A stretch of 64,000 bases of DNA from Candidatus Wirthbacteria bacterium (GCA_903889905.1 CAISZI010000040.1:148-64147), one strand, 5' to 3'; positions 9,378-31,861 are shown, numbered from the stretch's first letter. A program made the numbers and translations. Notes: generated by a model from the letters alone, not told the origin.

Positions 9378-9392
9378 TTAAACAGATTAAAA

Positions 9393-9444: not shown

Positions 9445-9510
9445 CCCCAAGGGTCAAATTTAGGGAGCATCGATTTGTACCAAACTTGCCAGGCAACTTC
9501 ATGAAAGTCA

Positions 9511-9549: not shown

Positions 9550-9659
9550 ATGAAAAGACCGGGGGAATTGTTGTTAAGTGTTGTCAACCAGGCAAGCAGT
9601 GTTGTTGGTAGTAAGGATCCCTCGACAAAGCCTCGGGATGACAGCCATAAGGAGCCAAC

Positions 9660-11018: not shown

Positions 11019-11102
11019 GAGTACCGCCCCCTGCCCCCTCCTAATTTAGGTGGGGGTGTGTTTGTCGGGGCGATTCATGAATCGCCCTCTTTAAAAAAGG
11101 AG

Positions 11103-14100: not shown

Positions 14101-14345
14101 ACGATCCCAAGAATTCCATTTTGAAACAGATCAAAAACAAGCACATTCAACTGGTCATCAACACTCCGGAAGCCAGTAAGGACGCCGAAAGCGACGGCCC
14201 GCAAATCCGCACGGCGGCGATCCAATATGGTGTGCCTTGCCTGACATCGCTCGACACTGCACGCGCCTTGCTTTTTAGCTTGCGTGCCCGACGGCAGGGA
14301 AAGGATTTGAAAGTGCGAACCATGGCAGAATATTTGGAGAGTTAG
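11103..14345 (+). CDS. carB: Carbamoyl-phosphate synthase large subunit. Two ATP-grasp halves, an oligomerisation domain and a C-terminal MGS-like allosteric domain.
   Basis: Duplicated ATP-grasp motifs and the MGS-like tail (GKVFVTVANRDKEEA...). Start chosen at ATG 11103 behind an AAGGAG RBS; the ORF track's upstream M is probably not used. Confidence 0.9.
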   Translation: MCVPKREEIKKVLVIGSGPIVIGQAAEFDYAGAQACLSLREEGVETVLINSNPATIMTDSDIADRIYIEPMTVEVIDQILEREKPQGVLPTLGGQTGLNLGMKLAKEGILAKHGCELLGTPMDTIYKAEDRQAFKNLMQEIGEPIPASVIATNLDEANVLKMEIGLPLIIRPAYTLGGTGGGIATSDAEFAEIVHRGLESSPIHQILVEQYIGGMKEIEFEVMRDSGDNCITICSMENFDPVGIHTGDSVVVAPCQTLTDREYQMMRSASINIIRALGVEGGCNVQFALDTLSFQYYVIEVNPRVSRSSALASKATGYPIARIAAKIAIGMQLDEIPNAITKKTVAAFEPAIDYCVLKIPRFPFDKFPEGDRSLGSQMKATGEVMSIDRTFEGAVKKALRSMDTKPNLDEWLKHDKYWAKATDVRLSLIIAALRRGITVETINADTQIDLWFLRKLRNLVTMEEQLAKLAALKDEEKNLQLEALLKRAKQFGFADHEIVALTDVTDTQLKQLLGTMHCAPTFKMVDTCAGEFEAVTPYFYSTWEDENEAVPSGKQDKAIVIGSGPIRIGQGIEFDYCSVHASLALREMGIESIMINNNPETVSTDFDVSDRLYFEPLELEDVVNVYNNESVGLDDGKKPKFIVQFGGQTSLTVASQLAKAGVIPHAGQVDSIELASNRGRFEKLLMALNIPFPRGHAAKTAAEALIVAEEIGFPVLVRPSFVLGGRAMEIVYSLDHMRELIDYVFSVVPDAPVLVDKYIDGKEAEVDLLFDGSDVLIPGIMEHIERAGIHSGDSMAVYPTQGLTLEQIDKMVDYSMRLAKAVGNIGLTNIQFVLQGGDVFVIEANPRGSRTVPFLSKVTGIPMVKLATQLLYGAKLKDLGYFPGLYPSSGVVAVKAPVFSFAKLTNVRTKLGPEMKSTGEVMGIDRTYPNALRKAFIASGIQIPLEGKVFVTVANRDKEEALSIVRGFAELGYAIVATEGTAHFLSEHEIKAAVVGKISDDPKNSILKQIKNKHIQLVINTPEASKDAESDGPQIRTAAIQYGVPCLTSLDTARALLFSLRARRQGKDLKVRTMAEYLES

Positions 14346-14629: not shown

Positions 14630-16516
14630 ATGGCGAAGTTTCTGGTCATCGATTTTGACAGCACATTTGTGAGATCGGAAGCCCTGGAGGAATTGGCGGC
14701 AGTTTGCCTCAAGTCGAGTACAAAGCGGGAGGCAATCCTGGCCCGCATCAAACAGATCACCAAAGACGGCATGGAAGGCAAACTGGGGTTTAAAGCCAGC
14801 CTCGAACAACGCCTCAAACTGCTTGCCGCGAGTCGTAATGACTTACCACTCGTGATCGCGCGTCTCAAACGCAAAATATCGCCTTCGATTTTGCGCAACA
14901 AATCTTTTTTTCATGACTTCAAGGACCAGATTTATATTGTTTCGGGTGCGTTTAAGGAAATTGTCGATCCGATTGTGGCGCAATTTGGCATTGACCCCAG
15001 CCACGTGCTTGCCAACGAATTTATCTACGACAGCAAAGGCAAGATCACCGGTTTTGATCACAATAATTTGCTGGTGCAACCCGAAGGCAAAGTCAAAGCG
15101 ATTTTGAGCTTGAAGCTGCACGGCGAGATTGACGTGATTGGCGACGGCTACACCGATTTACAAGTGCGCGAACTAGGCGCCGCAAACCGCTTCATTGCCT
15201 TTACCGAAAACGTGAAACGTCAGATTGTGATGGACAAAGCCGACCATATAGCGCCAAATTTTGACGAAGTGCTTTTCCTGAACAATTTTCCGCGTGCTAT
15301 TTCCTTTCCCAAAAATCGCATTCAGGTGGTGCTGCTGGAAAACATCCATCCACGCGCTGTGGCGATGTTCGAACAGGAAGGATTTAAAGTCGAAGTCCAT
15401 GACAAAAGCCTGCCCGACGACAAGCTGACTGCTGTCATTGCCAAAGCGCACGTGCTAGGTATTCGTTCCCGTACCCAACTCACGCCTGAGCTGTTGAAGC
15501 AGGGGAAACACCTGCTGGCAGTTGGCGCTTTTTGCATCGGGGTGGAACAGATCGCGCTCGACAAAGCCGCCAGCCAGGGCGTGGTCGTGTTTAATGCGCC
15601 TTACAGCAACACCCGTTCGGTCGTCGAACTCGCATTGGGCGAGATGATCATGTTGCTCCGGCAAATTACAGATAAAAATGCCAAGCTGCATCAGGGTATC
15701 TGGGACAAACAGGCAGTCGGCTCCAATGAAATCCGCGGCAAAAAGCTGGGCATCATTGGTTACGGCAATATTGGGACACAACTCTCGGTGCTGGCCGAAA
15801 ACCTGGGCATGGAGGTTTACTATTACGACCTGGTTGAGAAACTTTCCCTTGGCAATGCCAAACGGTGCCGATCTATGTCAGAACTTTTAAAAAAAGCCGA
15901 TGTCGTCACTGTGCATGTGGATGGCCGCAAGGAGAACAAGAACCTGATTGGTGCCAGGGAATTTGGCCAGATGAAGGACGGGGTGGTATTTTTGAACCTG
16001 AGCCGTGGACAGATTGTTGACCTCGGGGCGCTGACCAAAGCCATCCAGTCGGGCAAAGTGCGAGGTGCCGGCCTGGATGTGTTTCCCACCGAACCGCGTG
16101 GCCAAGACGAACCGTTTCTTTGCACACTCCAAAATTTGCCCAACGTCATCCTGACGCCACATATTGGTGGCAGCACCGAGGAAGCGCAGTTCAATATCGG
16201 TGAATTTGTGGCGACCAAATTGATCGATTATATCAACACCGGCAGCTCATTCATGAGTGTGAATTTTCCCAATATCCAGCTGCCACCCATCCAAAAATCC
16301 CACCGGCTGCTGCATATTCACCGCAATGTGCCGGGCATGCTGGCCCAGATCAATGGCATTTTTGCCCAGCATGGTATCAACATCGAAGGCCAGTACCTCA
16401 AGACCAAGGAAAACATCGGTTATTGTATCACCGACATCAACCGCAAATACTCGCCCAAATTGATCGACGAACTCAAGCAGATTCCAGACACGATTTCATT
16501 TCGTATTTTATACTAA
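14630..16516 (+). CDS. serBA: Fusion protein: phosphoserine phosphatase (HAD, DFDST motif), then D-3-phosphoglycerate dehydrogenase (NAD-binding GIIGYGNIG) with a C-terminal ACT domain
   Basis: 628-aa single ORF. N-terminal ~215 aa carry HAD motifs I-III. The remainder is a type-I PGDH with an ACT tail. Confidence 0.85.
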   Translation: MAKFLVIDFDSTFVRSEALEELAAVCLKSSTKREAILARIKQITKDGMEGKLGFKASLEQRLKLLAASRNDLPLVIARLKRKISPSILRNKSFFHDFKDQIYIVSGAFKEIVDPIVAQFGIDPSHVLANEFIYDSKGKITGFDHNNLLVQPEGKVKAILSLKLHGEIDVIGDGYTDLQVRELGAANRFIAFTENVKRQIVMDKADHIAPNFDEVLFLNNFPRAISFPKNRIQVVLLENIHPRAVAMFEQEGFKVEVHDKSLPDDKLTAVIAKAHVLGIRSRTQLTPELLKQGKHLLAVGAFCIGVEQIALDKAASQGVVVFNAPYSNTRSVVELALGEMIMLLRQITDKNAKLHQGIWDKQAVGSNEIRGKKLGIIGYGNIGTQLSVLAENLGMEVYYYDLVEKLSLGNAKRCRSMSELLKKADVVTVHVDGRKENKNLIGAREFGQMKDGVVFLNLSRGQIVDLGALTKAIQSGKVRGAGLDVFPTEPRGQDEPFLCTLQNLPNVILTPHIGGSTEEAQFNIGEFVATKLIDYINTGSSFMSVNFPNIQLPPIQKSHRLLHIHRNVPGMLAQINGIFAQHGINIEGQYLKTKENIGYCITDINRKYSPKLIDELKQIPDTISFRILY

Positions 16517-16522
16517 CGACCC

Positions 16523-17593
16523 ATGGCCAATAAGACTTTTCTGACTGTCGGTCCCAGCGCACTTTACCCCACCGTGCCGCAGCACCTGCAAACGGCTTTG
16601 GCCGCAGATGTGATGTCTCTTTCGCATCGCAGCAAAGCTTTTGTGGACATTTATCAGGGCGCTGTATCCGCCTTACGCGAGCTGCTCTCGATTCCTGCAA
16701 ACTACTACGTTTTTTTTGTTTCGTCATCACTGGAGAGCATGGAACGGTGTTTGCAGAATACCGTCGAACGCAGTAGTTTCCACTTAGTGAACGGAGAATT
16801 TTCGCGCAAATTTTTTGAATTTGCCAAGCAACTTGGGAAGCAGCCACAGCAGTTGGAAGTGGCGCCCGGTCATGGTTTTTCGTTTGACGAGATTGTCGTC
16901 CCCGCGGAAGCCGAACTAATTTGTATCACTGAAAATGAAACCAGTACGGGCGTTGCCTTACCGCTTGAGTTGATCAGCGCAGTACACGCCAAATATCCAG
17001 ACAAGTTGATCGCAGTGGATATTGTTTCCTCCGCGCCTTATCCGGCATTGGACTTCGCTACGATCGATATGGCCTTTTGGTCCGGCCAAAAAGGTTTTGG
17101 CATTCCCGCCGGCATGGGCGTGCTTGTGGTAAGCCCTCGCGCCATTGCCAAGACGGAAAAGCTCAAAGCGACTGGCGTTACGATTGGGAGTTTTCATAAT
17201 TTCATCGACCTTGCCACGTTTGCTGCCAAAGGACAGACACCCGAGACACCCAACGTGCTGGCGATAGACTTGATGGGGAAAGTGACAAAGGACATGCTGG
17301 AGCTGGGGATAGGAACAATTCGAATTCAAACTCGAGCCAAGGCCAAATTGATTTATGAATACTTAAAGCGTCATTCCAATTGTCAACCCTTCGTGACCGA
17401 CGCAGCCTTGCAGTCTCAAACGACAATCGTTGTCAATGTGGGATCGAATTCAGCCAGTTTGATCAAACGGTTGGAGGTGGCTGGTTTTGTAGTTTCGAGT
17501 GGCTACGGGCCGTTCAAAGACCAACATCTTCGCATTGCCAATTTTCCAGCAGTGAGTGTGGAGGAGATGGAGAGGTTGGTGGGGGTTTTGTGA
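16523..17593 (+). CDS. serC: Phosphoserine aminotransferase (class V aminotransferase)
   Basis: 356 aa with an SGQKGF lysine-region-like motif. Sits 7 nt after serBA. Confidence 0.8.
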   Translation: MANKTFLTVGPSALYPTVPQHLQTALAADVMSLSHRSKAFVDIYQGAVSALRELLSIPANYYVFFVSSSLESMERCLQNTVERSSFHLVNGEFSRKFFEFAKQLGKQPQQLEVAPGHGFSFDEIVVPAEAELICITENETSTGVALPLELISAVHAKYPDKLIAVDIVSSAPYPALDFATIDMAFWSGQKGFGIPAGMGVLVVSPRAIAKTEKLKATGVTIGSFHNFIDLATFAAKGQTPETPNVLAIDLMGKVTKDMLELGIGTIRIQTRAKAKLIYEYLKRHSNCQPFVTDAALQSQTTIVVNVGSNSASLIKRLEVAGFVVSSGYGPFKDQHLRIANFPAVSVEEMERLVGVL

Positions 17594-17755: not shown

Positions 17756-18721
17756 ATGCTCTTGCCGATGCATAACTCCTCGACCTCTTTCTTCACTCGC
17801 CATCTTCCTCCCAGCATCTCCATCGGCGCAGTTGGCTCGATCAAACCCCTTTTCAATCCCAATGGTTTGGTTACCGTTGACGGCCTCAGCGACCACTACG
17901 ATCAAAATCGTTTTCCCGTGGACTTCGACTTTGTGGTGCCATTTAACGAAAAGCACTTGGGGTGGATGCGGCAGTTTGGAATTCCAGAGGAGTACCGTAT
18001 CCGCGAAAGCTCGGACAAAGTCCAAATTCTGGAATTTGACGCTGATTATCGTCAGCAAATCAATGAAACGATGACCGAACTGAGTGAAATTTCCAATTGC
18101 CACCCCTGGCAGGATGACATTTCCCGATTTCGCTATCAGCAGCGCTGGATGACGATCGCCAAACTACAGGCGGACTCATTTTTGTCGCAAGTGGACATGT
18201 CCAAAGTGCGTTTACTGGCGCCGTTGCGTGCCGGGGCACTGGCGACCGTGCCGTACCAACTCCCGCCAAACCAGATCGGAGCAGCGGTTTACAAACGGCT
18301 TCCCAAAGCGAACGGTGAAACGTGGGTTGGCCTCAAAGACGTCCACCTGCCAGCGCTCGATGCGAACTCGATCGTCGTGGTTACTGAAGGCTGTACTGGT
18401 TCTGGTGCAACGGTGGTGGCGACCATGTTGTACTTTTTGGCCATGGCGATTCCTTGCCGGCATTTGGAACTCCACACCATCAACAGCCCGCAGCACAGCA
18501 TGCTGTTCATGCTCTCCGCCGCAGCGGAGCTGGGTTTTGAGCTGACGATACGGTCGGCCACGATTTCGTATTTTGAAGATGCCAAACTCTATAACCACTG
18601 GGGCAAACCGGAGTGGCTGGATTTTGCTTATGTGCTGTCGGATGTCGGTGATTTTAGCGTGCCATTGCCGCCTGCGTTCAACGCTAGAGCCTGGTGGAAC
18701 ATCGGGCGACAAGGGATATAG
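17756..18721 (+). CDS. Divergent uracil-phosphoribosyltransferase-fold protein with an ~120-aa N-terminal extension and a degenerate PRPP loop (VVVTEGCTGSGATVVAT instead of VDPMLATGGS)
   Basis: Segment-by-segment similarity to Upp (LLAPLRAGALATV ~ VVPILRAGLGM, and the C-terminal region). Call by eye only. Confidence 0.4.
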   Translation: MLLPMHNSSTSFFTRHLPPSISIGAVGSIKPLFNPNGLVTVDGLSDHYDQNRFPVDFDFVVPFNEKHLGWMRQFGIPEEYRIRESSDKVQILEFDADYRQQINETMTELSEISNCHPWQDDISRFRYQQRWMTIAKLQADSFLSQVDMSKVRLLAPLRAGALATVPYQLPPNQIGAAVYKRLPKANGETWVGLKDVHLPALDANSIVVVTEGCTGSGATVVATMLYFLAMAIPCRHLELHTINSPQHSMLFMLSAAAELGFELTIRSATISYFEDAKLYNHWGKPEWLDFAYVLSDVGDFSVPLPPAFNARAWWNIGRQGI

Positions 18722-18798
18722 GCCATGGGCTCGACTTGTTGTATAATTAAACGATGAGATAATGCTTGTCTCATCTTAATTTTTAGCAACAGGTTGGC

Positions 18799-19602
18799 GT
18801 GACCCGTTCCAGGCAGTTCAAACAACCATCCATCTGGGCACAATACCGGGGCGGCTTTTCCACCCACACGGCGGTAGCGGTAGGGATGTTCGGGGTCATG
18901 ATCTTGATCACGGGTTTTGTGCTGCTGATGATTAACGGGTATTTTCGTAATTATAATTTTGGCAATTTAGCGGGATTGCACTCAACTCCGACCTTGACGC
19001 CGGCAACGGCTACAGTCAAGGAAGTGTGGGGCAAAGCCGAGATCAAGCATGGTACGGATGACCAGGCCGCTTGGTCACCGTTGGTGGAAAATGAATTGAT
19101 CGTTTCTGGTGATGAAATCCGCACCGGAGTGGATGGATTGGTTACGATTGCAATTCCTGGCGGCAGTGAAACGCGGGTTAATCATCAATCACTCCTAACC
19201 TATGCCTTTGGCGTGAACACCAAAAACGCGAGACAAATTGGCGTGACCGTGAAACAGCTCATGGGAGAGATTTATCACCTTGTTATCGAAAATAGTGGCA
19301 ACCAGTTGACTTACACCGTGCTCACCCCGAATTTTGTCATGACAGCCACCGAAAATAGCAGCAGCAATACCTTTGTGAGTACCGAGCCAGTCGAGGCCAC
19401 TGTTCAAACAGTCAGCGGTGTGGTGGTAGTGGCGCCACCGGATGGCAACGAAGCCACCACGACCAATCTGGTGGAAGCGCAGCAAATAATCACCGATCCC
19501 AATCACCAGGGTCTGACCATTTGGAACATTCCCACCAAGCAGCCGAATTCCTCCTGGATCATTGCCAACATGCAATTAGACAAAACCAACGCTATTCATT
19601 GA
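18799..19602 (+). CDS. Hypothetical protein with one N-terminal TM helix (MFGVMILITGFVLLMI) and a Thr/Val-rich extracytoplasmic beta-rich domain
   Basis: ORF with a GTG start. Hydrophobic anchor. No family recognised. Confidence 0.45.
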   Translation: MTRSRQFKQPSIWAQYRGGFSTHTAVAVGMFGVMILITGFVLLMINGYFRNYNFGNLAGLHSTPTLTPATATVKEVWGKAEIKHGTDDQAAWSPLVENELIVSGDEIRTGVDGLVTIAIPGGSETRVNHQSLLTYAFGVNTKNARQIGVTVKQLMGEIYHLVIENSGNQLTYTVLTPNFVMTATENSSSNTFVSTEPVEATVQTVSGVVVVAPPDGNEATTTNLVEAQQIITDPNHQGLTIWNIPTKQPNSSWIIANMQLDKTNAIH

Positions 19603-19659
19603 ATTAATTCCCTCAACTCGGTACAATCAGGCCCTTACTTTGGACACAAGGGGCCACCC

Positions 19660-20616
19660 ATGTCGGAAGTTGTATCCTTGCCAGTCAAACCACTAATAGT
19701 GATTGCTTTGGGCGGGAATGCAATTTTGCGTGCCAGGGAAAAAGGGACTTACAACGAGCAGATGGCCAATGTGAGTGCGACTTCTGCCAATTTGGCAAAA
19801 CTGGTTATGGGGAATTTCCGTGTCGTGATTACGCATGGCAATGGCCCGCAAGTTGGCAATTTGTTGATTCAACACGCGGCCGCCCAAAACCAGGTGCCAG
19901 CTTTGCCCATGGATGCCTGTGGCGCACAAAGCCAAGGTCAAATTGGTTATATGATGCAGCAAACGATGCGACAGCATTTGCGTGCGGCGGGTTCGGTTGT
20001 TGACGTGGGGACGCTGGTGACGCAAGTGGAAGTCGATGCCGCTGATCCAGCCTTTGCCAAACCAACCAAACCCGTGGGACCGTTTTATGATGCGGCGACA
20101 GCCGAACGCATGCGGTCACAGGGTTACTGCGTGATCGAAGACAGCGGCCGTGGTTATCGTCGTGTTGTACCGTCGCCGATTCCTCAACATATTGTTGAAA
20201 TAAATATTGTGCGCGCGCTGGCCAAGGCTGGCATTGTGGCGATTGCCGCGGGTGGCGGCGGTGTGCCCGTTGTTGCAACCGAGGCAGGATATAAAGGAGT
20301 GGAAGCCGTGATCGACAAAGACATGGCCGGGTCGTTGCTCGCACATGAACTGGACGCTGACTTGTTTGTCGTTCTCACCGACGTCAGCCGTGTCTGCCTG
20401 CATTACAAACAGCCGGATCAGGAAGAACTTAAATCCATGAGTTTGTCACAAGCGCATCGGTACCTCAGCGAAGGACACTTTGCCGCTGGCAGTATGGGTC
20501 CAAAAGTGCTGGCCTGCATGAAATTCATCGAACGTGGCGGCAAGCAAGCGATCATTACGAATCCGGCGAGTATATTGGAGGCGGTTAAAGGGGAGGCGGG
20601 GACTGTAATTTATTAA
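19660..20616 (+). CDS. arcC: Carbamate kinase
   Basis: 318 aa, amino-acid-kinase fold (ALGGNA, ITHGNGPQVG, GGGGVPV). AAGGGG RBS. Confidence 0.85.
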   Translation: MSEVVSLPVKPLIVIALGGNAILRAREKGTYNEQMANVSATSANLAKLVMGNFRVVITHGNGPQVGNLLIQHAAAQNQVPALPMDACGAQSQGQIGYMMQQTMRQHLRAAGSVVDVGTLVTQVEVDAADPAFAKPTKPVGPFYDAATAERMRSQGYCVIEDSGRGYRRVVPSPIPQHIVEINIVRALAKAGIVAIAAGGGGVPVVATEAGYKGVEAVIDKDMAGSLLAHELDADLFVVLTDVSRVCLHYKQPDQEELKSMSLSQAHRYLSEGHFAAGSMGPKVLACMKFIERGGKQAIITNPASILEAVKGEAGTVIY

Positions 20617-20640
20617 TTCTGGAACAAAGCGACAAAGTCC

Positions 20641-20733
20641 GTCATTGCGAGGAGTCATCGACGCGGCAATCTTTCGGCTTTTGGGAGGAAAGATTGCCAC
20701 GTCACCCCGTCAGAACGGGATTCCTCGCAATGA
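20641..20733. repeat. MITE-like palindromic element, copy 2 (GTCATTGCGAGGA...GGCAATCTTTCGGCTTTTGGGAGGAAAGATTGCC...TTCCTCGCAATGAC)
   Basis: Same terminal and inner inverted-repeat structure as the copy at 2206. Confidence 0.7.
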
Positions 20734-20767
20734 CAGAATTAACTAATGACATCAACAGGAGAGTAAA

Positions 20768-23104
20768 ATGTTTCGTCAGAAAGTGATCATCATGGGCGCG
20801 GCGGGGCGAGATTTTCACAACTTCAACGTCTACTTCCGCGACAAGGAAGAATTTGAGGTTGTCGCTTTTACGGCGACGCAGATTCCCAATATTGACGGCC
20901 GCAAATACCCGGCCGAACTGGCGGGTACGCTTTACCCCGATGGCATCGATATTTACCGCGAAGAAGAGCTGTCGCAACTGATCAAACGTTTTGATGCCCG
21001 TACCGTCGTTTTTGCCTATTCGGATGTTAGCCATGAGTACGTCATGCATCGCGTTTCATTGGCCAATGCCGTGGGGGCCAATTTCCTGCTGCTCGGAGTG
21101 AGGGACACCATGATTAAGTCGATCAAACCCGTGATTTCGATCTGTGCCGTGCGCACCGGCAGTGGCAAAAGTCAGACATCGCGTGCGGTGGTTGGTTTTT
21201 TGAAGACGCAAGGCCTCAAGGTTGTGGCCGTGCGCCACCCTATGCCTTATGGCGACCTGGCCAAACAGGCGGTGCAGCGTTTTGCCACTTACGATGACTT
21301 TGCCAAACACGAGTGCACGTTTGAGGAGCGCGAAGAATATGAGCCCTACATTGAGCAGGGATTGGTGATTTATGCCGGTGTGGATTATGGTGCCATTCTG
21401 ACGCAAGCCGAAGCTGAGGCCGATGTGATTGTCTGGGATGGTGGCAACAACGACACACCTTTTTTCGTTCCGGACCTTAATATCGTTGTCGTCGACCCAC
21501 ACCGTCCGGGCCATGAGCTTAAGTATTATCCTGGCGAAACCAACCTGCGCATGGCCGACGTGATTGTGATCAACAAAATGGACAGCGCCCAGCCTGAGGG
21601 CATCGAAACCGTCAAAGCCAACATTGCCAAATACAACAGTCGCGCCCGGGTGATCGAAGCGGATTCGATTATCGACGTAGCTGATCCGACGCTGATTAAC
21701 AATATGCGCGTGCTCGCCATTGAAGATGGTCCAACCGTGACACACGGTGGTATGGGGTATGGTGCCGCCTACATTGCAGCGGAAAAGTTCAAAGCCTGGC
21801 AAATCGTCGATCCGCGGCCATTTGCGGTGGGTTCAATCAAGGCAACCTTTGCCAAATACAGCCACCTCGACAAAGTCCTGCCGGCCATGGGTTATGGCTC
21901 CGCGCAAATGCAGGAACTCGAGGACACGATCAACGCGAGCAATGCCGAAGCGGTTGTAATTGGTACTCCCGTGGATCTGGGCAAGCTGTTGCATATCAAT
22001 AAACCCTATACCCGCGTCACTTACCGTTTGGCGGAACGTGGCGACCTCAAACTTGCCGAGGTTTTACAACCGTTCATTCCTGCCACAACTATCCCAACTG
22101 TTCAAAGTCCCGCTTCAACCATCACCCCAAGGAGTGTCTCCATGCCAGCGACAAACCTTCCCCAGAACTCGGTTCGGCATTTACTCCATTTCAAAGATTA
22201 CACCGGCGCCGAACTGCGCGAGATCCTCGACCTGGCGCACAAAATCAAAGCCAGTCCCAAGGAATACTGGTTTGCTCTTGACCACCAGACGCTGGTCATG
22301 CTGTTTCAAAAGAATTCGACCCGCACCCGCGTCTCCTTTGAAACCGGGCTCACTCAGCTCGGCGGCCACGCCATTTTTCTGGATTGGAAAAATACCCAGC
22401 TGGACAAAGCGAGCCTTCCTGATGAAGCGCGCTGCCTGGCTCGCTATGGCAACATGATCGCCGCGCGGCTCAAAAAGCACAGCGACATCGAGCAGATTGC
22501 CGCCTATAGTCGCGTACCAGTGATCAACATGCTGTGCGAGAAATACCATCCCTGCCAGTCACTCGCCGATTTGCTCACCATCGAAGAACATTTGGGCAAA
22601 CTGGAAGGCAAGAATATTGTCTACACTGGCATTGCCAACAATGTCTCCAACACATTGGTTGACGCCGGCACCAAGCTTGGCGCCAATGTCATCCTGGCCG
22701 TACCCGAAAAAGACCCGGATGCCCTGGACCCCGAACTTGAAGCCGCTGCCATGGCCACTGGTCGCTATCACGAAACCACAGATTTGCTCGAAGTCATGCC
22801 CACAGCCGACGTCGTCTACACCGACACCTGGGTCAATATGGAGCATTTTGACGACCCCAAATTCGCCGCCGAGAAAGCCCGCCGCGAGAAGCTTTTCGCG
22901 CCCTACCAGGTGAGTGCCGCGCTGCTGGAGAAGACCGGAAGCCATGCCCTGATCATGCACGACCTCCCAGCCCACGATGGCTATGAAATCACTCGGGATG
23001 CCATTGAGCACCCCAATTCCATCATCTTCGACCAGGCCGAGAACCGGCTGCATGCCCAGAAGGCAGTCATGGTGTGGTTGCTGCAGAAGAATAAGATGGT
23101 ATAA
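20768..23104 (+). CDS. Fusion protein. The N-terminal ~440 aa are a COG2403-like P-loop NTPase (cyclic 2,3-diphosphoglycerate-synthetase-family 'predicted GTPase'; Walker A AVRTGSGKSQTS, Walker B IVWDGGNND). The C-terminal ~330 aa are an ornithine/putrescine carbamoyltransferase (STRTRVSFE, HPCQ, HDLPA).
   Basis: 778-aa uninterrupted ORF with an AGGAG RBS. OTC motifs are unambiguous. The N-terminal family assignment is by eye. Confidence 0.75.
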   Translation: MFRQKVIIMGAAGRDFHNFNVYFRDKEEFEVVAFTATQIPNIDGRKYPAELAGTLYPDGIDIYREEELSQLIKRFDARTVVFAYSDVSHEYVMHRVSLANAVGANFLLLGVRDTMIKSIKPVISICAVRTGSGKSQTSRAVVGFLKTQGLKVVAVRHPMPYGDLAKQAVQRFATYDDFAKHECTFEEREEYEPYIEQGLVIYAGVDYGAILTQAEAEADVIVWDGGNNDTPFFVPDLNIVVVDPHRPGHELKYYPGETNLRMADVIVINKMDSAQPEGIETVKANIAKYNSRARVIEADSIIDVADPTLINNMRVLAIEDGPTVTHGGMGYGAAYIAAEKFKAWQIVDPRPFAVGSIKATFAKYSHLDKVLPAMGYGSAQMQELEDTINASNAEAVVIGTPVDLGKLLHINKPYTRVTYRLAERGDLKLAEVLQPFIPATTIPTVQSPASTITPRSVSMPATNLPQNSVRHLLHFKDYTGAELREILDLAHKIKASPKEYWFALDHQTLVMLFQKNSTRTRVSFETGLTQLGGHAIFLDWKNTQLDKASLPDEARCLARYGNMIAARLKKHSDIEQIAAYSRVPVINMLCEKYHPCQSLADLLTIEEHLGKLEGKNIVYTGIANNVSNTLVDAGTKLGANVILAVPEKDPDALDPELEAAAMATGRYHETTDLLEVMPTADVVYTDTWVNMEHFDDPKFAAEKARREKLFAPYQVSAALLEKTGSHALIMHDLPAHDGYEITRDAIEHPNSIIFDQAENRLHAQKAVMVWLLQKNKMV
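23018..23104 (+). repeat. Direct repeat, copy 1: the true 3' end of the OTC-fusion gene
   Basis: About 90% identical to 23498-23585 over ~88 bp. The last 40 bp are identical. Confidence 0.8.
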
Positions 23105-23148
23105 TCAATTCTCACCTTGATATCTTATTTTTATAAGTCTGAGAATTT

Positions 23149-23490
23149 ATGTCGGAAATCGGCATTGGTGATTATGGTATTGCTGCCGATGGCGAGTACG
23201 ATCCGGCAGGCGAAATGCATGATTCGAGATCACCAGAAATATGTGTAGGGGAGTTACGATCTCTGAATGAAAGTATGCATAGTTTAGTAACGGAGTTACG
23301 TTATTTATATACGGAGATTGAAGCCTTGCGAGCGCAAGGAAATCTCAATAAACAAGATCAAAGAAAGTTAAAAAGACTCCAAAACGACGCACCAAGCACA
23401 TTAAATGTGCTGGAAAAGAAAAGGAAAAAATTTGCCACGCGACGCCAGTGGTATATTGATCATGATCCGAGTTATGCCGGCTTTAAGTAA
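23149..23490 (+). CDS. Hypothetical small coiled-coil protein of 113 aa in an AT-rich insert
   Basis: ORF between the two copies of the OTC 3'-end repeat. No family recognised. Confidence 0.4.
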   Translation: MSEIGIGDYGIAADGEYDPAGEMHDSRSPEICVGELRSLNESMHSLVTELRYLYTEIEALRAQGNLNKQDQRKLKRLQNDAPSTLNVLEKKRKKFATRRQWYIDHDPSYAGFK

Positions 23491-23497
23491 TCAAACT

Positions 23498-23585
23498 CCT
23501 TCATCTTCCACCAGGCCGAAAACCGCATGCATACTCAGAAGGCATTGCTGGTGTGGTTGCTGCAGAAGAATAAGATGGTATAATC
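23498..23585 (+). repeat. Direct repeat, copy 2: a relic, displaced copy of the OTC 3' end. Still encodes ...IFHQAENRMHTQKALLVWLLQKNKMV*.
   Basis: Alignment to 23018-23104 read directly. Confidence 0.8.
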
Positions 23586-23605
23586 TATAACCTCGCTGCA
23601 ATGCG

Positions 23606-23983
23606 GTGGAATCTATCTATTTTTATCGAGGTTGGAAAATGGCTAAATCGACTGTTGAATTAACTGCTGAGGGTAAATCCCAACAAGCGTTTTTGGATGA
23701 GATCAAACTCGATGAAAATAACGCACACGCAGACATTATAAAGGATATTGATGAATTGATTTTAGAAATTGATACAAAGGGTGAAGTCGAAGCCGATCGG
23801 TACTCAGCAGCTATTAAGAATTTTAATGATTTTTTTGATATTCGTTTGCCTCAAAACTTTGCTATTGATTATGTTCACATTCAAATTCTACTTGATTTAG
23901 TTGAAGCAGAATTGTCGCGCTTGAGTAAAACTGACAGTGAGCCGACTTTGGATCAGGTTGGCGGGCTTGAGGGGCAGGGGTAG
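23606..23983 (+). CDS. Hypothetical small acidic protein (likely start at MAKSTVEL, 23639)
   Basis: ORF in the AT-rich islet. No family recognised. Confidence 0.35.
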   Translation: MESIYFYRGWKMAKSTVELTAEGKSQQAFLDEIKLDENNAHADIIKDIDELILEIDTKGEVEADRYSAAIKNFNDFFDIRLPQNFAIDYVHIQILLDLVEAELSRLSKTDSEPTLDQVGGLEGQG

Positions 23984-24162
23984 TGAGGACGTCGCTGGCG
24001 GATCCAGATTTAGCCAAATAATCTGAAATTATTAACTCAATTTTCATGGAGGTGCAAACTGGACGAGATTGATGATAGTGGTTACCAAGGAGAGACAGAT
24101 CGACCGAATGCCTCTCTGACGGTGGTTCAAATTGCGGCAAAAGTATTAGCTGATCAGCAGCA

Positions 24163-24453
24163 ATGACTGCTCATCCTGTAGATTTAGGAGAATCTCCGGC
24201 ACTGGAGCAACAAGAGGACAAGAGCAATTCAATTTTGGCATTGCAGCAGAAAGAATTGGCAGCAAAGTATCAAGAGAATATTTTATTAGCTGAGTACAAT
24301 GCCCTAAAATCTAGACCATCCACTGCACTTGCAGATATTGATGCCGCCTTCGATCGTTTAGTTGCAGCATCCACGCGAGTAAATAATTTGGAGATAGACT
24401 TGCACAAATTATGCAAGGGGCCAGGCTCAGATGAAAATGGTTCATTTAGATAA
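24163..24453 (+). CDS. Hypothetical small coiled-coil protein of 96 aa
   Basis: ORF in the AT-rich islet. No family recognised. Confidence 0.35.
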   Translation: MTAHPVDLGESPALEQQEDKSNSILALQQKELAAKYQENILLAEYNALKSRPSTALADIDAAFDRLVAASTRVNNLEIDLHKLCKGPGSDENGSFR

Positions 24454-24713
24454 TCAAAAATGAACATATTGTAATTTCATCAAAGAATGCTGAATTGACT
24501 AGCTGAAGTGGGAATAAAACCTTGACCGCTCACATTATTTCTGTTAGTTTGTTGGCGGTCCGAAAATGATGTTTAATGCTTATTAACCATGCTCAAACTG
24601 ATTCGTCTTTGCCGTCGCATGAAGCCCGAACTCGAGCTGTGATTACTATTCCCCTTTACCATTGGTAACAGGGGATTTTTTTTGGCCATTTATCAACCAT
24701 TCTGGAGGGCAGT

Positions 24714-26033
24714 ATGCCTAACTTCGTCGGACGCGACATCATATCCATGGATGAATTCAGCCGCGAGGACATCATGTATGTCATGCGCGTGGCTGAGCTG
24801 ATGGAAAAAAACAAATATCCCGAGCTGCTCAAGGGCCTGATCGTGTCCACGTTGTTCTTCGAACCCTCTACTCGCACGCGCCTTTCCTTTGAGACCGCCG
24901 CGCTGCAGATCGGTGCCCAGGTCATTTCCACGACCGGCGCCCAGTTTTCGTCACTCTACAAAGGTGAAACGTTGCAGGATACTGCTGCGGTGATCGGTGG
25001 CTATGCCGATGTGCTGGTCATGCGCCACCCGGAAAAAGGTTCTGCCCGTGCGCTTGCCGATGGTACCGACAAACCCATCATTAATGGTGGTGACGGCCCC
25101 GGCGATCATCCAACTCAAACGCTTTTGGACCTTTATACCATCCTTTCAGCCAAAGGGACACTGGATAACCTCAAGATTGGCTTTGTCGGTGATCTCAAAT
25201 ACGGGCGTACCGTGCACTCACTGGCTACGGCACTGCGCTTTTTTAACCCCGAACTCTATTTCATCGCGCCCAAAGCACTCGCCATGCCCGACGAGTACAA
25301 GGAACGCCTCGACAATGCCGCAGTCAAATACCACGAGAGCGAAAATCTGGATGACTTTATCGGCGAGGTGGACATCCTGTATGTGACCCGTGTGCAGAAA
25401 GAACGCTTTACCGACGTCGAGGAATACAACAAGTACAAACTCATGTACATCATCGGTAATGACACCCTCAACAAAGCGCGCAAAGATGTTTCGATTATGC
25501 ATCCGCTACCACGGGTCGGCGAGATCAAGACCGAAATCGATAACTCCCCCAATGCCATTTACTTCCAGGAAGCCTGGAACGGCGTGCCGGTGCGCAAAGC
25601 CTTGCTCGCACTCGTCACTGGTCGCTTCAAACTCGAAGACCAGACGCAATCGGGTAAATTGGTCAAGAAAAATGTCCTGCTCACGATCGGTTCGGAAGAT
25701 AACAAGAAGAAAATGCTGCCCGACATTCAACAACTCGCCACAGTCGGTTACAACCTCTATGCCACCGCAAAAACACACAAATTCCTCAAGGAAATGGGCG
25801 TCGAAAATACCCAGCTGCACAAGATCAGCGATACCGGCAAGCAACCGAATATCAAAGACTTCCTGGAGCAAAAACGTTTTGACATCATCATCAATATCCC
25901 AAGTGGATTAGGCAGCGAAGAAGCTACGGACGGCAGCCTGATGCGCCGCATGGCCATTGAACAGAGCATTCCGCTGATTACCGACCCGCAGGTGGCGCAC
26001 TTCCTGATCGCGGCGTTGAAGAAGGAAGCGTAA
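24714..26033 (+). CDS. pyrB: Aspartate carbamoyltransferase catalytic chain fused to a C-terminal MGS-like (methylglyoxal-synthase-like) domain
   Basis: STRTRLSFE, HPTQ and HPLP motifs place it in ATCase. The ~115-aa C-terminal domain (KKNVLLTIGSEDNKKK...IINIPSG) resembles the CarB allosteric MGS domain. GGAGGG RBS. Confidence 0.85.
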   Translation: MPNFVGRDIISMDEFSREDIMYVMRVAELMEKNKYPELLKGLIVSTLFFEPSTRTRLSFETAALQIGAQVISTTGAQFSSLYKGETLQDTAAVIGGYADVLVMRHPEKGSARALADGTDKPIINGGDGPGDHPTQTLLDLYTILSAKGTLDNLKIGFVGDLKYGRTVHSLATALRFFNPELYFIAPKALAMPDEYKERLDNAAVKYHESENLDDFIGEVDILYVTRVQKERFTDVEEYNKYKLMYIIGNDTLNKARKDVSIMHPLPRVGEIKTEIDNSPNAIYFQEAWNGVPVRKALLALVTGRFKLEDQTQSGKLVKKNVLLTIGSEDNKKKMLPDIQQLATVGYNLYATAKTHKFLKEMGVENTQLHKISDTGKQPNIKDFLEQKRFDIIINIPSGLGSEEATDGSLMRRMAIEQSIPLITDPQVAHFLIAALKKEA

Positions 26034-26166: not shown

Positions 26167-27027
26167 TTGTGCCAAAGAATTAAAACAATTAGTGAACAGG
26201 TTTGCATGAACTTCCGCGAAAAACTTGATCTCGTTGTGACCCGGAACAATTCTCTGGTTTGCGTTGGGCTGGACAGTGAAATTGCCAAAATGCCGCCGCA
26301 TATCCAGTCCATGGAAGACCCGCAGTTTGAATTCAACAAGTCGATTATTGACGCCACAGCCGACCTTGTGTGCGCCTACAAGCCCAATATCGCTTTTTAC
26401 GAGCTGTTTGGCGCGCGCGGGATCACGTCCCTGCTCAAGACGATCGAATATATCCCCAAAAATATTCCGATCGTGCTCGATGCCAAACGTGGCGACATTG
26501 GCGATACCTCTTATATGTATGCCAAAAGTTATTTTGAGACATTTGGGGTGGATGCCGTGACGATCCACGGGTACATGGGATCTGACACCGTAGCGCCGTT
26601 CATGAAATACGAAGACAAAGCCATTTTTGTGCTGGTCAAGACGTCCAATCCGTCGGCTGTGGAGTTTGAGGACATGGAACTCAAGGATGGCAAAAAACTG
26701 TATATCAAAGTCGCCGAGAAAATCGCGGAGTGGAATGAACTGTATCCGGGCTTGTGTGGTACAGTCGTGGGCGCGACCTTTCCGGCTGATCTGAAGCCGA
26801 TCCGAGTAATTTTACCCGATGTTCCGTTTCTTGTCCCCGGACTGGGGAAACAAGGTGGTGACACTGAGCAAACGGTTTTGAATGGGATGGATGCGCGTGG
26901 CAGAGGGCTTTTGATCAACTCGGCCCGAGCCATCATCTTTGCCGGTAATGGCCTCGACTTTGCCCAAAAAGCCCGTGAAGAAACGCTTAAATTGCGCGAC
27001 AAGATCAACCAGTATCGCAAGGGGTAA
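26167..27027 (+). CDS. pyrF: Orotidine-5'-phosphate decarboxylase (long type 2). TTG start at 26167, or ATG at 26206.
   Basis: VGLDS...DAKRGDIG motifs. Confidence 0.85.
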   Translation: MCQRIKTISEQVCMNFREKLDLVVTRNNSLVCVGLDSEIAKMPPHIQSMEDPQFEFNKSIIDATADLVCAYKPNIAFYELFGARGITSLLKTIEYIPKNIPIVLDAKRGDIGDTSYMYAKSYFETFGVDAVTIHGYMGSDTVAPFMKYEDKAIFVLVKTSNPSAVEFEDMELKDGKKLYIKVAEKIAEWNELYPGLCGTVVGATFPADLKPIRVILPDVPFLVPGLGKQGGDTEQTVLNGMDARGRGLLINSARAIIFAGNGLDFAQKAREETLKLRDKINQYRKG

Positions 27028-27031
27028 AACC

Positions 27032-28390
27032 GTGACCAAATATCTCCTCAAGCAGGGCACACTCATTTCGGCAACTGGCCGACAGGTGGCTGATCTCATT
27101 ATCGACAATGGCAAAATTGCCAAAATCGGTTCAAACCTGACGGCCTTGAGCGCCTACGAAATCAATTGCGATGGCTTGCTGATACTCCCGGGCATGATCG
27201 ATACGCATGTGCATTTCCGCGATCCGGGTCTTACCCACAAGGCTGACGCAGCCACGGAATCGCTGGCGGCGCTCGCCGGTGGCGTGACCACGATTTGCGA
27301 CATGCCCAATACCAAACCACAAACGACGACAATCCCATTGGTCAAAGAAAAACAGCAGCTGTATGCCACGAAGTGTTTGTGCGATTTTGGTATTTATCTC
27401 GGGGCAGCCAAAGACAACCTTGAGGAGCTCAAGCGAGCAGACGAGGACAATACGATCCCGGCAGTCAAAATTTTCATGGCCGAGAGTACAGGGGAGATGA
27501 CGTTGAGTGAAGATGAATATCTAAAACCGATATTTGCGCAGACACGCAAACTACTGCTTGTCCACGCCGAAAACGAAGCGCGACGACTCCACCGGATCGA
27601 GCAGTTCAGACAGGGAAAGCTCAAGGAAGCAATGGGTATGGCGCCCAATGACCCCTATCTGCACGGCATTGTCCGCGACAACAAAGTTGCCTCCCAGGGC
27701 ACCAAACACGCGGTGGAACTGGCGCTTGCGGCCAAACACCGGATGCATGTACTGCACGTCTCTGCCCGTGAAGAATTCCCTTTTTTGCGCCAGGGTCTCG
27801 ATGCCGGCCTGGTCACGTCGGAAACGTGTCCCCAATACCTGTGGTTTACCCGCGAGGACACCAAAGTGCATGGACTGTATCGCATCATGAATCCAGCGCT
27901 CAAAGGCGAAGCTGACCGCGCGGCCCTCTGGGAAGCTTTACAAACCGGTTTGATTTCCCAGGTTGCCACCGATCACGCGCCGCATCTGCCTGAAGAAAAA
28001 GATTTAGGTTATGGCAAAGGGCCCTCCGGGCTTCCTGGAGTACAGTTTGTCCTGCCACTACTGCTGGCCAAAGCGCAGGAGGGAGAGCTGACTCTGGAAC
28101 AAGTGGTGCAACTAACCAGCTTCAACCCTGCCCAGAATTTTCAGATCGAAAATAAAGGCCAGCTCGCCGAAGGCTTTGATGCCGACATCGCCATTATTAA
28201 CCCAAATGCCAGTGCCATGATTCACGCTGATATGGTAAAGTCTAAGTGCGGCTGGACACCTTATGAAGGTGTTTTGCTGAACGGCGGATTGGTGGAGAAA
28301 ACTTTCGTCCGTGGTGAACTCAAATTCAACCGCCACAGTGATTTCAAAGTTTCCATGCTTCCAGGCAAGACCATTACGGTCAGGCTTTAA
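27032..28390 (+). CDS. pyrC: Dihydroorotase (amidohydrolase superfamily), GTG start
   Basis: DTHVHFRDPG metal-binding motif. The GTG at 27032 follows an AAGGGG RBS and the pyrF stop at 27025-27027. The longer ORF in the track overlaps pyrF. Confidence 0.85.
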   Translation: MTKYLLKQGTLISATGRQVADLIIDNGKIAKIGSNLTALSAYEINCDGLLILPGMIDTHVHFRDPGLTHKADAATESLAALAGGVTTICDMPNTKPQTTTIPLVKEKQQLYATKCLCDFGIYLGAAKDNLEELKRADEDNTIPAVKIFMAESTGEMTLSEDEYLKPIFAQTRKLLLVHAENEARRLHRIEQFRQGKLKEAMGMAPNDPYLHGIVRDNKVASQGTKHAVELALAAKHRMHVLHVSAREEFPFLRQGLDAGLVTSETCPQYLWFTREDTKVHGLYRIMNPALKGEADRAALWEALQTGLISQVATDHAPHLPEEKDLGYGKGPSGLPGVQFVLPLLLAKAQEGELTLEQVVQLTSFNPAQNFQIENKGQLAEGFDADIAIINPNASAMIHADMVKSKCGWTPYEGVLLNGGLVEKTFVRGELKFNRHSDFKVSMLPGKTITVRL

Positions 28391-29271: not shown

Positions 29272-29835
29272 TTGTCCACGCAGCGACGTTATCAAATCGC
29301 GGTTTGTGGTTCTGCGGTGGTAGAAAGCGAAACTGTCGCCCAGGCCGCGGATGCAATTGGTCATGAAATTGCCAAACGGGGTTTTATTCTGCTCACAGGT
29401 GGTACCAATGGTTACCCACAGCGGGCAGCCCAAAGTGCACAGGCAGCAGGCGGCCTCAGCATTGGCATTTCACCGGCTGCAAATCGCTCGCAACACGTTA
29501 AGGATTACAAAATTCCTTTGCACGAATACGATGTCCTGGTCCTCACGGGCATGGGGTTTTCTGGTCGCAATGTGACACTGGTGCGCAGCGCCGATGCCGT
29601 CATCTTTGTGGGTGGACGCATGGGCACGGTCAATGAATTCACGACCGCCCATTCCGAAATGAAGGTGATCGGCATTTTGTCCGGCAGTTCCGCCAACATG
29701 GATTTGTTGCCGCAACTGGCGGCTAATGCACATCGCCCGGGCGGAGTGATCCTTTGCGATGCCGATCCCGTGGCGCTTGTAGCCAAAGTCATTGCTCAAC
29801 TCGATGCAACAGAATCTGGAGAATTGTATGGTTAA
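29272..29835 (+). CDS. LOG / TIGR00725-family Rossmann-fold nucleotide-binding protein (putative nucleotide 5'-monophosphate N-glycosidase)
   Basis: GGTNGYPQRAA ... FVGGRMGTVNEF pattern, typical of LOG/YgdH-like proteins. TTG start. Confidence 0.55.
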   Translation: MSTQRRYQIAVCGSAVVESETVAQAADAIGHEIAKRGFILLTGGTNGYPQRAAQSAQAAGGLSIGISPAANRSQHVKDYKIPLHEYDVLVLTGMGFSGRNVTLVRSADAVIFVGGRMGTVNEFTTAHSEMKVIGILSGSSANMDLLPQLAANAHRPGGVILCDADPVALVAKVIAQLDATESGELYG

Positions 29836-30800: not shown

Positions 30801-30903
30801 GTCATCGAGAGGAGTCCTTCGTAAGGCTCAGGATAATCATCCTCGACGTGGCAACGCTTCATAAGTAACTAGATTGCCGCGGTCGAAGACTCCCTCGCAA
30901 TGA
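30801..30903. repeat. MITE-like palindromic element, copy 3 (left arm degenerate: GTCATCGAGAGGA; right half AACTAGATTGCCGCGGTCGAAGACTCCCTCGCAATGAC, near-identical to copy 1). Inserted between pyrD and pyrK.
   Basis: Read directly. Confidence 0.7.
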
Positions 30904-30930
30904 CAGCTAACCTCGAAAAAGGAAAAAATC

Positions 30931-31756: not shown

Positions 31757-31861
31757 GTCATTGCGAGTCCAGTCGGTGGGACGCGGCAATCTTTTGAAAA
31801 GAAGAAAAATTGCCCAGCTGTGCTGGACAAAGGCCGCAGTCGCTGACTTCTTCGCAATGAC
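31757..31861. repeat. MITE-like palindromic element, copy 4 (GTCATTGCGAG...GCGGCAATCTTTTGAAAAGAAGAAAAATTGCC...CTTCTTCGCAATGAC)
   Basis: Read directly. Lies between pyrK and prs. Confidence 0.7.

Follow-up and report, generated by a model that had tools for sequence, protein, structure and literature searches.

A locus of Candidatus Wirthbacteria raises the question of how carbamoyl phosphate can be drawn from arginine where no arginine deiminase is encoded nearby. The DNA is one strand of 64,000 nucleotides (nt) (GCA_903889905.1, CAISZI010000040.1:148-64147; called the window below), in which a carbamate kinase gene, arcC, is followed by a gene whose 778-amino-acid (aa) product joins a P-loop domain to an ornithine carbamoyltransferase (OTC)-like domain. 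An initial annotation, made from the sequence alone, had read the P-loop domain as an NTPase that energizes or regulates carbamoyl transfer in a novel energy-coupled module. Both open reading frames (ORFs) are present as that annotation claimed, with every motif that it quoted, and its naming of the upstream gene is borne out by the equivalog hidden Markov model (HMM) TIGR00746 arcC, which matches aa 13 to 317 of the product with 404.2 bits (cutoff, 358.25). Our domain scan covered the 52 main ORFs of the 64-kb window, among which arginine deiminase (arcA), argG, argH, and the arginine/ornithine antiporter (arcD) were not found; the deiminase is thus lacking nearby, as noted initially. We consider it likely that this is a locus for the arginine synthetase pathway (ArcE, ArcB, and ArcC) in which the first two enzymes are fused. 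Supports for this reading are the family identity and fold of the P-loop domain, the gene context in relatives, a carbamate kinase-ArcE fusion (P0247), ornithine-consuming neighbors, the absence of arcA, argG, and argH, and published biochemistry and genetics. The pathway is already known, having been discovered recently; what is unusual here is its fused form, and no new kind of mechanism is seen. The features of the two genes are as follows.

19660 to 20616, plus strand: arcC, carbamate kinase, 318 aa, ATG start (TIGR00746)
20757 to 20763, plus strand: Shine-Dalgarno-like AGGAGAG, 4 nt upstream of the start codon of arcE-arcB (by inspection of the sequence)
20768 to 23104, plus strand: fusion gene arcE-arcB, 778 aa and stop, ATG start, a single ORF
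20768 to 22084, plus strand: N-terminal domain (N-domain), aa 1 to 439, ArcE-family P-loop domain (homologues, alignment, and model)
21158 to 21172, plus strand: Walker A motif (P-loop) GSGKS, aa 131 to 135 (family alignment)
21434 to 21454, plus strand: WDGGNND motif, aa 223 to 229, invariant in the family (family alignment)
22085 to 22168, plus strand: interdomain linker TTIPTVQSPASTITPRSVSMPATNLPQN, aa 440 to 467 (predicted local distance difference test, pLDDT, below 50)
22169 to 23101, plus strand: C-terminal domain (C-domain), aa 468 to 778, OTC-like carbamoyltransferase of a variant subfamily (Pfam and NCBIfam)
22304 to 22330, plus strand: FQKNSTRTR, aa 513 to 521, carbamoyl-phosphate-binding motif with the OTC-type Lys
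22823 to 22864, plus strand: variant second-substrate loop DTWVNMEHFDDPKF, which replaces DxWxSMGQ and has a 6-residue insertion (alignments to 1A1S and to operon OTCs)
22958 to 22969, plus strand: HDLP, which replaces the OTC motif HCLP (alignments)

The P-loop domain and its fusion to a carbamoyltransferase

The N-domain is 60 to 70% identical over its full length to hundreds of stand-alone proteins of ~440 aa, which come from bacteria and archaea (WOR-3, Aminicenantes, Chloroflexi, Thermoplasmata, Bathyarchaeia, Asgard archaea, and others) and are labeled "predicted GTPase" or "cyclic 2,3-diphosphoglycerate synthase." In an alignment of 31 family members, all 113 invariant columns are kept in the N-domain, including the P-loop residues R129, T130, G131, G133, K134, and S135 (R-T-G-x-G-K-S) and the motif W-D-G-G-N-N-D. 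A Foldseek comparison of its AlphaFold2 model (pLDDT, 90.3) with the PDB places cyclic 2,3-diphosphoglycerate synthetase (cDPGS; 8ORU, E 3.6e-16, 15% identity) first and LpxK, an Aquifex enzyme, next (4EHX/4EHY, ~3e-8). By sequence the relation to cDPGS is weak, with 9sxb reaching E 0.066 over 84 residues in a phmmer search of the PDB, and the structural alignment gives 13 to 15% identity and a TM-score of 0.42 to 0.48. The Pfam match to CobW/HypB/UreG is partial and marginal (21.5 bits, profile positions 113 to 179 of 180), a full-length match to this SIMIBI GTPase family not being found in Pfam, and no model of NCBIfam (release 20) matches the N-domain at E <= 0.01, so that this library appears to lack an ArcE model.

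In its length class, its P-loop, its former labels, its LpxK-like fold, and its weak similarity to cDPGS, the N-domain is like TK2200 of Thermococcus kodakarensis, a hypothetical protein with homologues annotated as "putative GTPase" that Michimori, Yokooji, and Atomi identified as the arginine synthetase ArcE (PNAS 2024, PMC11032458). According to that study, ArcE catalyzes the reaction Arg + ADP + Pi <-> citrulline + NH3 + ATP, forms ATP, and functionally replaces ArcA; TK2200p is specific for L-arginine and free ammonia, and the reaction is reversible and close to equilibrium (K about 10) and supports growth of T. kodakarensis on citrulline. Together with OTC and carbamate kinase, ArcE constitutes the "arginine synthetase pathway," in which 2 ATP are gained from each arginine, and the ArcE gene often adjoins arcC and arcB (PMC11032458). 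The same work describes a fold like that of LpxK (4EHY) with distant or weak similarity to cDPGS, predicts tetramers and higher assemblies for TK2200p, and names Thermoflexus and Thermosediminibacteraceae as holders of ArcE (PMC11032458). To the homologues from these two taxa, the N-domain is 62% (Thermoflexus sp., L050) and 66% (Thermosediminibacteraceae, P0021) identical. Based on this identity, the matching structural neighbors, and the gene context, we place the N-domain in the ArcE family and infer from family membership that it would act as an arginine synthetase. The deiminase would then be absent from the locus because the N-domain itself is the deiminating enzyme. The NCBI name "cyclic 2,3-diphosphoglycerate synthase," carried by P0021, P0026, P0032, P0037, P0062, and others, looks like a systematic misannotation, and the present finding corrects this widespread database name ("cyclic 2,3-diphosphoglycerate synthase/GTPase") for genes of the ArcE family.

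The reading frame of the 778-aa ORF is uninterrupted, both domains are intact, and the AlphaFold2 model of the whole protein consists of two confident domains (mean pLDDT, 88.3) joined by 28 disordered, Pro/Thr/Ser-rich residues (aa 440 to 467), the sole region with a pLDDT below 50. The predicted template modeling score (pTM) of 0.57 for the whole protein suggests that the domains are held by a flexible tether without a fixed interface. A second fusion protein of the same architecture, P0002 (775 aa), is 67% identical to the window protein over 100% of its length, with a linker that aligns loosely. Contigs that encode P0002 occur in at least five metagenome assemblies that are independent of each other (ENA and JGI), and one of these bears the label groundwater. 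The OTC-like domains of the two fusions are mutual best matches (70% identity), and the ArcE part of P0002 is 76% identical to the unfused P0003 and 68% to the window protein. Among 5.8 billion protein clusters, only the window protein and P0002 score above the single-domain level; none of the 80 genome loci with an N-domain homologue of 60 to 65% identity has an ArcE-OTC fusion, and HMMER, run exhaustively over 1.84 billion representatives, gave no further one, the long matches being a carbamate kinase fused to ArcE, an ArcE with an intein, and a Clp_N-OTC protein. The ArcE-ArcB fusion is genuine and rare. The initial annotation had named separate genes in orthologues as grounds for rejecting the fusion, and on this count the outcome is mixed: the genes are separate in most relatives, but P0002 confirms that the fused state is genuine in this lineage.

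Differing pairs among the three pathway enzymes are fused in differing lineages. The carbamate kinase-ArcE fusion P0247 (766 aa) has an AA_kinase domain at aa 3 to 292 and ArcE at aa 328 to 748, and its locus (L094, 134 to 2434; Logan SRR28595008) is represented by one short contig only. In a further ArcE homologue, P0350 (806 aa), the sequence is split by an intein bearing a homing-endonuclease domain of the LAGLIDADG type.

These data bear on two other accounts of the protein. An assembly or frameshift error that merged adjacent genes is conceivable in that the relatives' genes lie side by side with a 4-nt overlap, so a single indel could join them, but we hold it to be extremely improbable, as the linker has no counterpart in the unfused genes, both domains are intact, and a 67%-identical fusion was recovered from at least five separate assemblies; the continuous frame and the two-domain model agree with this. 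It is also very improbable that the N-domain is a cDPGS-like or GTPase-like NTPase that energizes or regulates carbamoyl transfer, as first proposed. The P-loop, the weak Pfam match to CobW/HypB/UreG (21.5 bits), the top structural rank of cDPGS, and the NCBI names of many homologues would all suit such an enzyme, and two parts of the original family assignment stand, namely, membership in the "predicted GTPase" family (COG2403) and a distant relation to cDPGS by fold. By sequence, however, solved cDPGS is reached at E 0.066 only, with 13 to 15% identity in the structural alignment, the relatives are mostly separate proteins, and the disordered linker and the pTM of 0.57 do not predict a fixed regulatory interface. 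Moreover, the demonstrated catalysis of the family, which is that of ArcE (PNAS 2024) and replaces arginine deiminase, exactly fills the missing step. The proposed energy-coupled module thus gives way to two consecutive enzymes of a published pathway in one chain.

A variant OTC-like carbamoyltransferase

Within aa 467 to 774, the C-domain matches the Pfam families OTCace_N (aa 470 to 607, 150 bits) and OTCace (aa 613 to 771, 136 bits). Two OTC models score above their cutoffs by narrow margins (NF001986, 331.5 versus 306; TIGR00658, 299.7 versus 280.85), and the NCBIfam models for transferases of the putrescine, N-acetylornithine, aspartate, and YgeW types score far below theirs. For putrescine carbamoyltransferase in particular, TIGR04384 gives 239 versus a cutoff of 500, the carbamoyl-phosphate motif has Lys and not Gln, and the C-terminal extension is absent. 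By these scores and motifs, the transferase is of the OTC type and not of the putrescine or YgeW type, in line with the initial annotation. The best solved relative is the OTC of Pyrococcus furiosus (1A1S, E 1.8e-72), with which (1A1S/1PVV) the C-domain shares STRTR, HPCQ (aa 594 to 597), and AENRLHAQKA (aa 757 to 766). The carbamoyl-phosphate site, formed by STRTR, HPCQ, and the Arg of ENR, is therefore intact, and the OTC-type Lys of FxKxSxRT, the Asp of DxW (DTW; equivalent to Asp231), and the Asn of NNV are retained as well.

The second-substrate site departs from this pattern. DVWASMGQ and HCLPAHRGEE of 1A1S correspond in the window protein to DTWVNMEHFDDPKF, with 6 extra residues, and HDLPAHDGYE (HDLPA, aa 731 to 735), respectively, and GDGNNV becomes GIANNV. 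The DxxxSMG signature is replaced by DTWVNME and the 6-residue insertion, in which Asp and Met are kept and Ser and Gly become Asn and Glu. In place of HCLP, the window protein has HDLP and P0002 has HCLP, with H[CD][LM][PA] in the subfamily, many of whose members have HDMP. According to Shi, Allewell, and Tuchman (PMC4581275), DxxxSMG separates ornithine transcarbamylases (OTCases) from other transcarbamylases, and the FxKxSxRT position holds Lys in OTCases, Gln in putrescine transcarbamylases (PTCases), and Glu in aspartate transcarbamylases (ATCases). They further report that Asp in HxLP is typical of diaminopropionate and diaminobutyrate transcarbamylases (DPTCases and DBTCases), most OTCases having Cys; that the hallmark of DPTCases and DBTCases is Thr or Ser in place of the DxW Asp; and that those of PTCases are Gln in the carbamoyl-phosphate motif, a (Y/W)(G/W)(V/L/I)x loop, and a C-terminal extension of ~20 residues (PMC4581275).

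This variant loop recurs in P0002 and, with few exceptions, in the 120 stand-alone homologues nearest to the C-domain, which are 54 to 66% identical to it and have ~305 to 312 aa. The subfamily, which is uncharacterized, is marked by the motifs DxW[VI][ND][MI]E..DPxF, GI[AHG]NNV, and H[CD][LM][PA]xHxGYE, and its named members, annotated as "ornithine carbamoyltransferase," are mostly from Aenigm-, Woese-, and Micrarchaeota and Microgenomates, with some from Firmicutes. Most OTC genes of the aligned arcE-arcC-arcB operons from GTDB have the canonical SMGQ and HCLP, which indicates that the variant loop is not required for partnership with ArcE. Given the context, the retained residues that bind the alpha-amino acid, and the HMM scores, the C-domain most probably works as an OTC. 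Two more divergent OTC-like genes, with 26 to 27% identity, lie 3' of arcE-arcC in an Aminicenantes metagenome-assembled genome (MAG) (L006, 12266 to 13153) and an "Eubacteriales" MAG (L010, 12275 to 13144); these genes are degenerate, with YFHPN or VLPSE at the position of STRTR and no HCLP, and may encode pseudoenzymes or have a different function.

A probable fused arginine synthetase pathway and its direction

In relatives, the three genes tend to stand together. An arcC gene lies directly downstream of the ArcE homologue in 21 of the 80 loci, and in 13 an OTC gene is present as well, the usual order being arcE-arcC-arcB; both counts are lower bounds because many contigs end near the gene. 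The nearest counterpart of the window is a Candidatus Microgenomates contig (L089; ENA ERZ24794671), where arcC, arcE, and arcB have the same order and strand and the transferase is of the same NME type (58, 65, and 61% identity for ArcC, ArcE, and the OTC-like protein, respectively), but the genes are separate, the arcE stop overlapping the arcB start (ATGA) with no linker. Next to this operon lies an ornithine/arginine decarboxylase-type gene, and the P0002 gene is followed by one for ornithine aminotransferase (TIGR01885, 418.7 versus a cutoff of 378.4; truncated product), both of which fit ornithine as a product of the pathway. The gene for the closest stand-alone ArcE, P0003, which is 70 to 76% identical to the two fusions, forms an arcC-arcE pair, and a terminator-like hairpin comes after this pair (L093). 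The closest relatives of the transferase and of the kinase belong to organisms of the candidate phyla radiation (CPR) and DPANN with catabolic arcC-arcE-arcB operons. Among named sequences, that of Candidatus Wirthbacteria is the closest to UvrB of the window (69%), with Chloroflexi and Firmicutes behind (62 to 64%); this suggests a host related to the sister group of CPR, which would fit the affinities of the kinase and the transferase. A Symbiobacterium sp. MAG (L032) has two ArcE paralogues 2 kb apart (9096 to 10391 and 12309 to 13610; 62 and 59% identity to the query), the first of which is immediately preceded by an OTC gene.

On the pathway proposed here, the N-domain would convert L-arginine, ADP, and Pi to citrulline, NH3, and ATP; the C-domain would phosphorolyze citrulline to ornithine and carbamoyl phosphate; and ArcC would use carbamoyl phosphate and ADP to form ATP and carbamate, unless carbamoyl phosphate passes instead to the aspartate carbamoyltransferase PyrB encoded downstream. 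The net gain could reach 2 ATP per arginine without arginine deiminase. The OTC equilibrium strongly favors citrulline synthesis. Fusion through the flexible linker of ~28 residues would fix a 1:1 ratio of the two activities and place citrulline production beside its consumption, and this proximity should help to pull the near-equilibrium ArcE reaction and the unfavorable phosphorolysis while citrulline is kept low. OTCs are trimers, and with the tetramers and higher assemblies predicted for TK2200p, a large assembly of hetero-symmetric type, possibly a 12-mer, is probable for the fused chain. The fusion probably originated from an arcC-arcE-arcB operon with overlapping arcE stop and arcB start; given the ATGA overlap in L089, loss of the arcE stop and gain of a short linker would have been enough to yield the window gene.

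Several points weigh against this pathway. We know of no bacterial ArcE-family member with a known activity; experimentally, ArcE activity has been demonstrated for TK2200 of T. kodakarensis only (PMC11032458), to which the N-domain is linked indirectly, through the Thermoflexus and Thermosediminibacteraceae homologues. The C-domain fails DxxxSMG and has HDLP for HCLP, its ornithine/citrulline substrate being suggested by context and not by motifs. The locus sits in an anabolic neighborhood, between carAB and pyrB-pyrC-pyrD-pyrK, the ArcE reaction is reversible (K about 10), and the inspection for argG, argH, and arcA covers 64 kb of the genome. Finally, a hairpin like those of repetitive extragenic palindromic (REP) elements separates arcC from the fusion gene, so that co-transcription is not assured.

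The main alternative is that the same bifunctional enzyme runs anabolically, as a two-step ornithine-to-arginine synthase fed by CarAB; the ArcE domain of the enzyme would then aminate citrulline to arginine with free NH3 and ATP and so bypass argininosuccinate synthetase and lyase. In its favor are carA-carB, 5 kb upstream on the same strand, the reversibility of ArcE and the growth of T. kodakarensis on citrulline (PMC11032458), and the biosynthetic role proposed for organisms that have carbamoyl-phosphate synthetase (CPS), ArcB, and ArcE but lack ArgG and ArgH (PMC11032458). The argG and argH genes were indeed not found in the window, but a 64-kb stretch is little guide to the genome as a whole. 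We regard this direction as rather unlikely, since an arcC-equivalog carbamate kinase lies directly upstream, ornithine aminotransferase follows the sister fusion P0002, and the closest transferase and kinase relatives have catabolic operons; the adjacent arcC and the ornithine-consuming neighbors in relatives argue for catabolism. Less likely still is a second substrate other than ornithine/citrulline, such as another diamine or diamino acid, with the fusion processing a different guanidino or ureido compound. The change of DxxxSMG to DxxxNME with its insertion, the Asp of HDLP shared with DPTCases and DBTCases, and OTC HMM scores barely above the cutoffs point that way, but the OTC-type Lys, the DTW Asp (Asp231 equivalent), and the NNV Asn are all kept, and the hallmarks of DPTCases and DBTCases (Thr/Ser for Asp) and of PTCases are absent. 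In addition, the ArcE domain is conserved as in the canonical operons, TK2200p accepts only L-arginine, and the neighboring genes in relatives consume ornithine. Finally, we tentatively raise the possibility, which we do not expect to hold, that the loop of this widespread transcarbamoylase subfamily (mostly DPANN and CPR, with some Firmicutes) is adapted to work with ArcE, either in a dedicated, "catabolic" citrulline-phosphorolyzing OTC or in an enzyme that, once fused, channels citrulline and makes the pair a one-protein converter between ornithine and arginine. If true, arginine synthesis in a Wirthbacteria-like host with CarAB could depend solely on such a converter, in place of ArgG and ArgH.

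The catabolic arginine synthetase pathway that we favor shares its three enzyme types with ArcE-ArcB-ArcC of T. kodakarensis (TK2200, TK0871, and TK2158), ArcA being absent from both, and the clustering of the N-domain with arcC and arcB is as in some of the genomes described previously (PMC11032458). Yet ArcE and ArcB form one polypeptide in the window, compared to three dispersed genes in T. kodakarensis, and neither "fusion" nor "fused" occurs in the main text of that article (PMC11032458). The hosts also differ, a mesophile-like bacterium related to Wirthbacteria or Chloroflexi here and a hyperthermophilic archaeon there, as does the ArcB part, which belongs to the variant OTC-like subfamily in the window, where CPS is also encoded nearby. 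With the classical arginine deiminase (ADI) pathway, arcABC, the last two steps and the conversion of arginine to ornithine, CO2, and 2 NH3 would be shared; the ADI pathway starts with the hydrolytic ArcA, whereas the window would use an ATP-forming P-loop enzyme, with 2 ATP instead of 1, and has neither arcA nor the arcD antiporter in its 64 kb. The nearest solved fold to the N-domain, cDPGS from Methanothermus fervidus (8ORU/8ORK and 9SXB), is likewise a P-loop enzyme with a phosphoanhydride as product or substrate, but identity is 13 to 15%, the TM-score is 0.4 to 0.5, and substrate and genomic context differ.

ArcE was described in 2024 and tested in a single hyperthermophilic archaeon, and the ArcE-ArcB and carbamate kinase-ArcE fusions provide independent "Rosetta-stone" evidence that the three enzymes cooperate in bacteria too. 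The fusion would also be a convenient single protein in which to study citrulline channeling between two near-equilibrium steps, and it points to an OTC-like subfamily whose members lack the textbook OTC signature although they bear the OTC label throughout DPANN and CPR genomes. In such organisms, arginine catabolism may be a main source of ATP and carbamoyl phosphate.

Surroundings of the locus in the window

The two genes are part of a carbamoyl-phosphate "supercluster" on one strand, which runs from carA and carB through a SerB-SerA fusion, a serC-like gene, and two genes of unknown function to arcC and arcE-arcB, and continues with three small ORFs, pyrB fused to an MGS-like domain, pyrC-like, pyrD, and pyrK-like genes, and a phosphoribosyl pyrophosphate synthetase. 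As the initial annotation had noted, the fusion lies downstream of carAB, which is 5 kb away on the same strand. The main neighbors and the element in the arcC/arcE-arcB spacer are the following.

9660 to 11018, plus strand: carA, carbamoyl-phosphate synthetase (Pfam and NCBIfam)
11058 to 14345, plus strand: carB, carbamoyl-phosphate synthetase (Pfam and NCBIfam)
20641 to 20734, no strand assigned: palindromic element like REP elements or miniature inverted-repeat transposable elements (MITEs), in the spacer between arcC and arcE-arcB (inverted ends and RNA fold)
24714 to 26033, plus strand: pyrB fused to an MGS-like domain (Pfam and TIGR00670)
26939 to 28390, plus strand: pyrC-like amidohydrolase (domain matches)
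29792 to 30781, plus strand: pyrD (domain matches)
30931 to 31743, plus strand: pyrK-like gene (domain matches)

The pyrimidine-gene surroundings recall T. kodakarensis, where ArcE and ArcB provide carbamoyl phosphate for pyrimidine synthesis (Front Microbiol 2026, PMC13260591), although the window would have a further source in its CPS. A parallel arrangement is found in an archaeal MAG (CAYMPD01; L091, 8001 to 14949), in which an NME-type OTC-like gene lies beside pyrB, pyrD, pyrK, and pyrC, the ArcE gene of this MAG being on a different contig (L018). PyrB of the window (TIGR00670, 361 bits) has a C-terminal MGS-like domain with the fold of the CarB allosteric domain, which replaces a separate PyrI, and the pyrB product of the archaeal locus is likewise long (414 aa).

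The spacer element has perfect 13-nt inverted ends, GTCATTGCGAGGA...TCCTCGCAATGAC, and is one of five copies of ~95 to 110 nt in the window (2206 to 2307, 10305 to 10415, 20641 to 20734, 30801 to 30904, and 31757 to 31861), where matches to its ends number 10, compared to 1.7 expected. Its predicted RNA fold is very stable (-60 kcal/mol, z -6.3), and an Rfam search with it gave no match that reached threshold. A riboswitch in the 150-nt spacer, which so stable a fold might have suggested, was rejected, because the element recurs five times at unrelated places of the window and has no Rfam match. The copy at 10305 to 10415 lies in frame within carA, between the CPSase and GATase domains and with no stop codon, and adds ~37 residues (…VIAKESATAASLQHEMRAERGSTIATSSHRNGIPCNDS…). 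A promoter and terminator scan of positions 18600 to 24800 found no more sites than in shuffled sequence and is therefore uninformative on operon structure.

Between carB and arcC, the stretch from 14630 to 17593 (plus strand) holds two genes that cover the three steps of the serine pathway: one for a 628-aa product in which a phosphoserine phosphatase (HAD) is fused to a phosphoglycerate dehydrogenase with an ACT domain, followed by one for a serC-like aminotransferase. Farther upstream on the plus strand lie a 983-aa ORF with no Pfam match (6426 to 9377) and, at 110 to 1801, a pyridoxal phosphate-dependent (PALP) enzyme fused to a LeuA-type allosteric domain.

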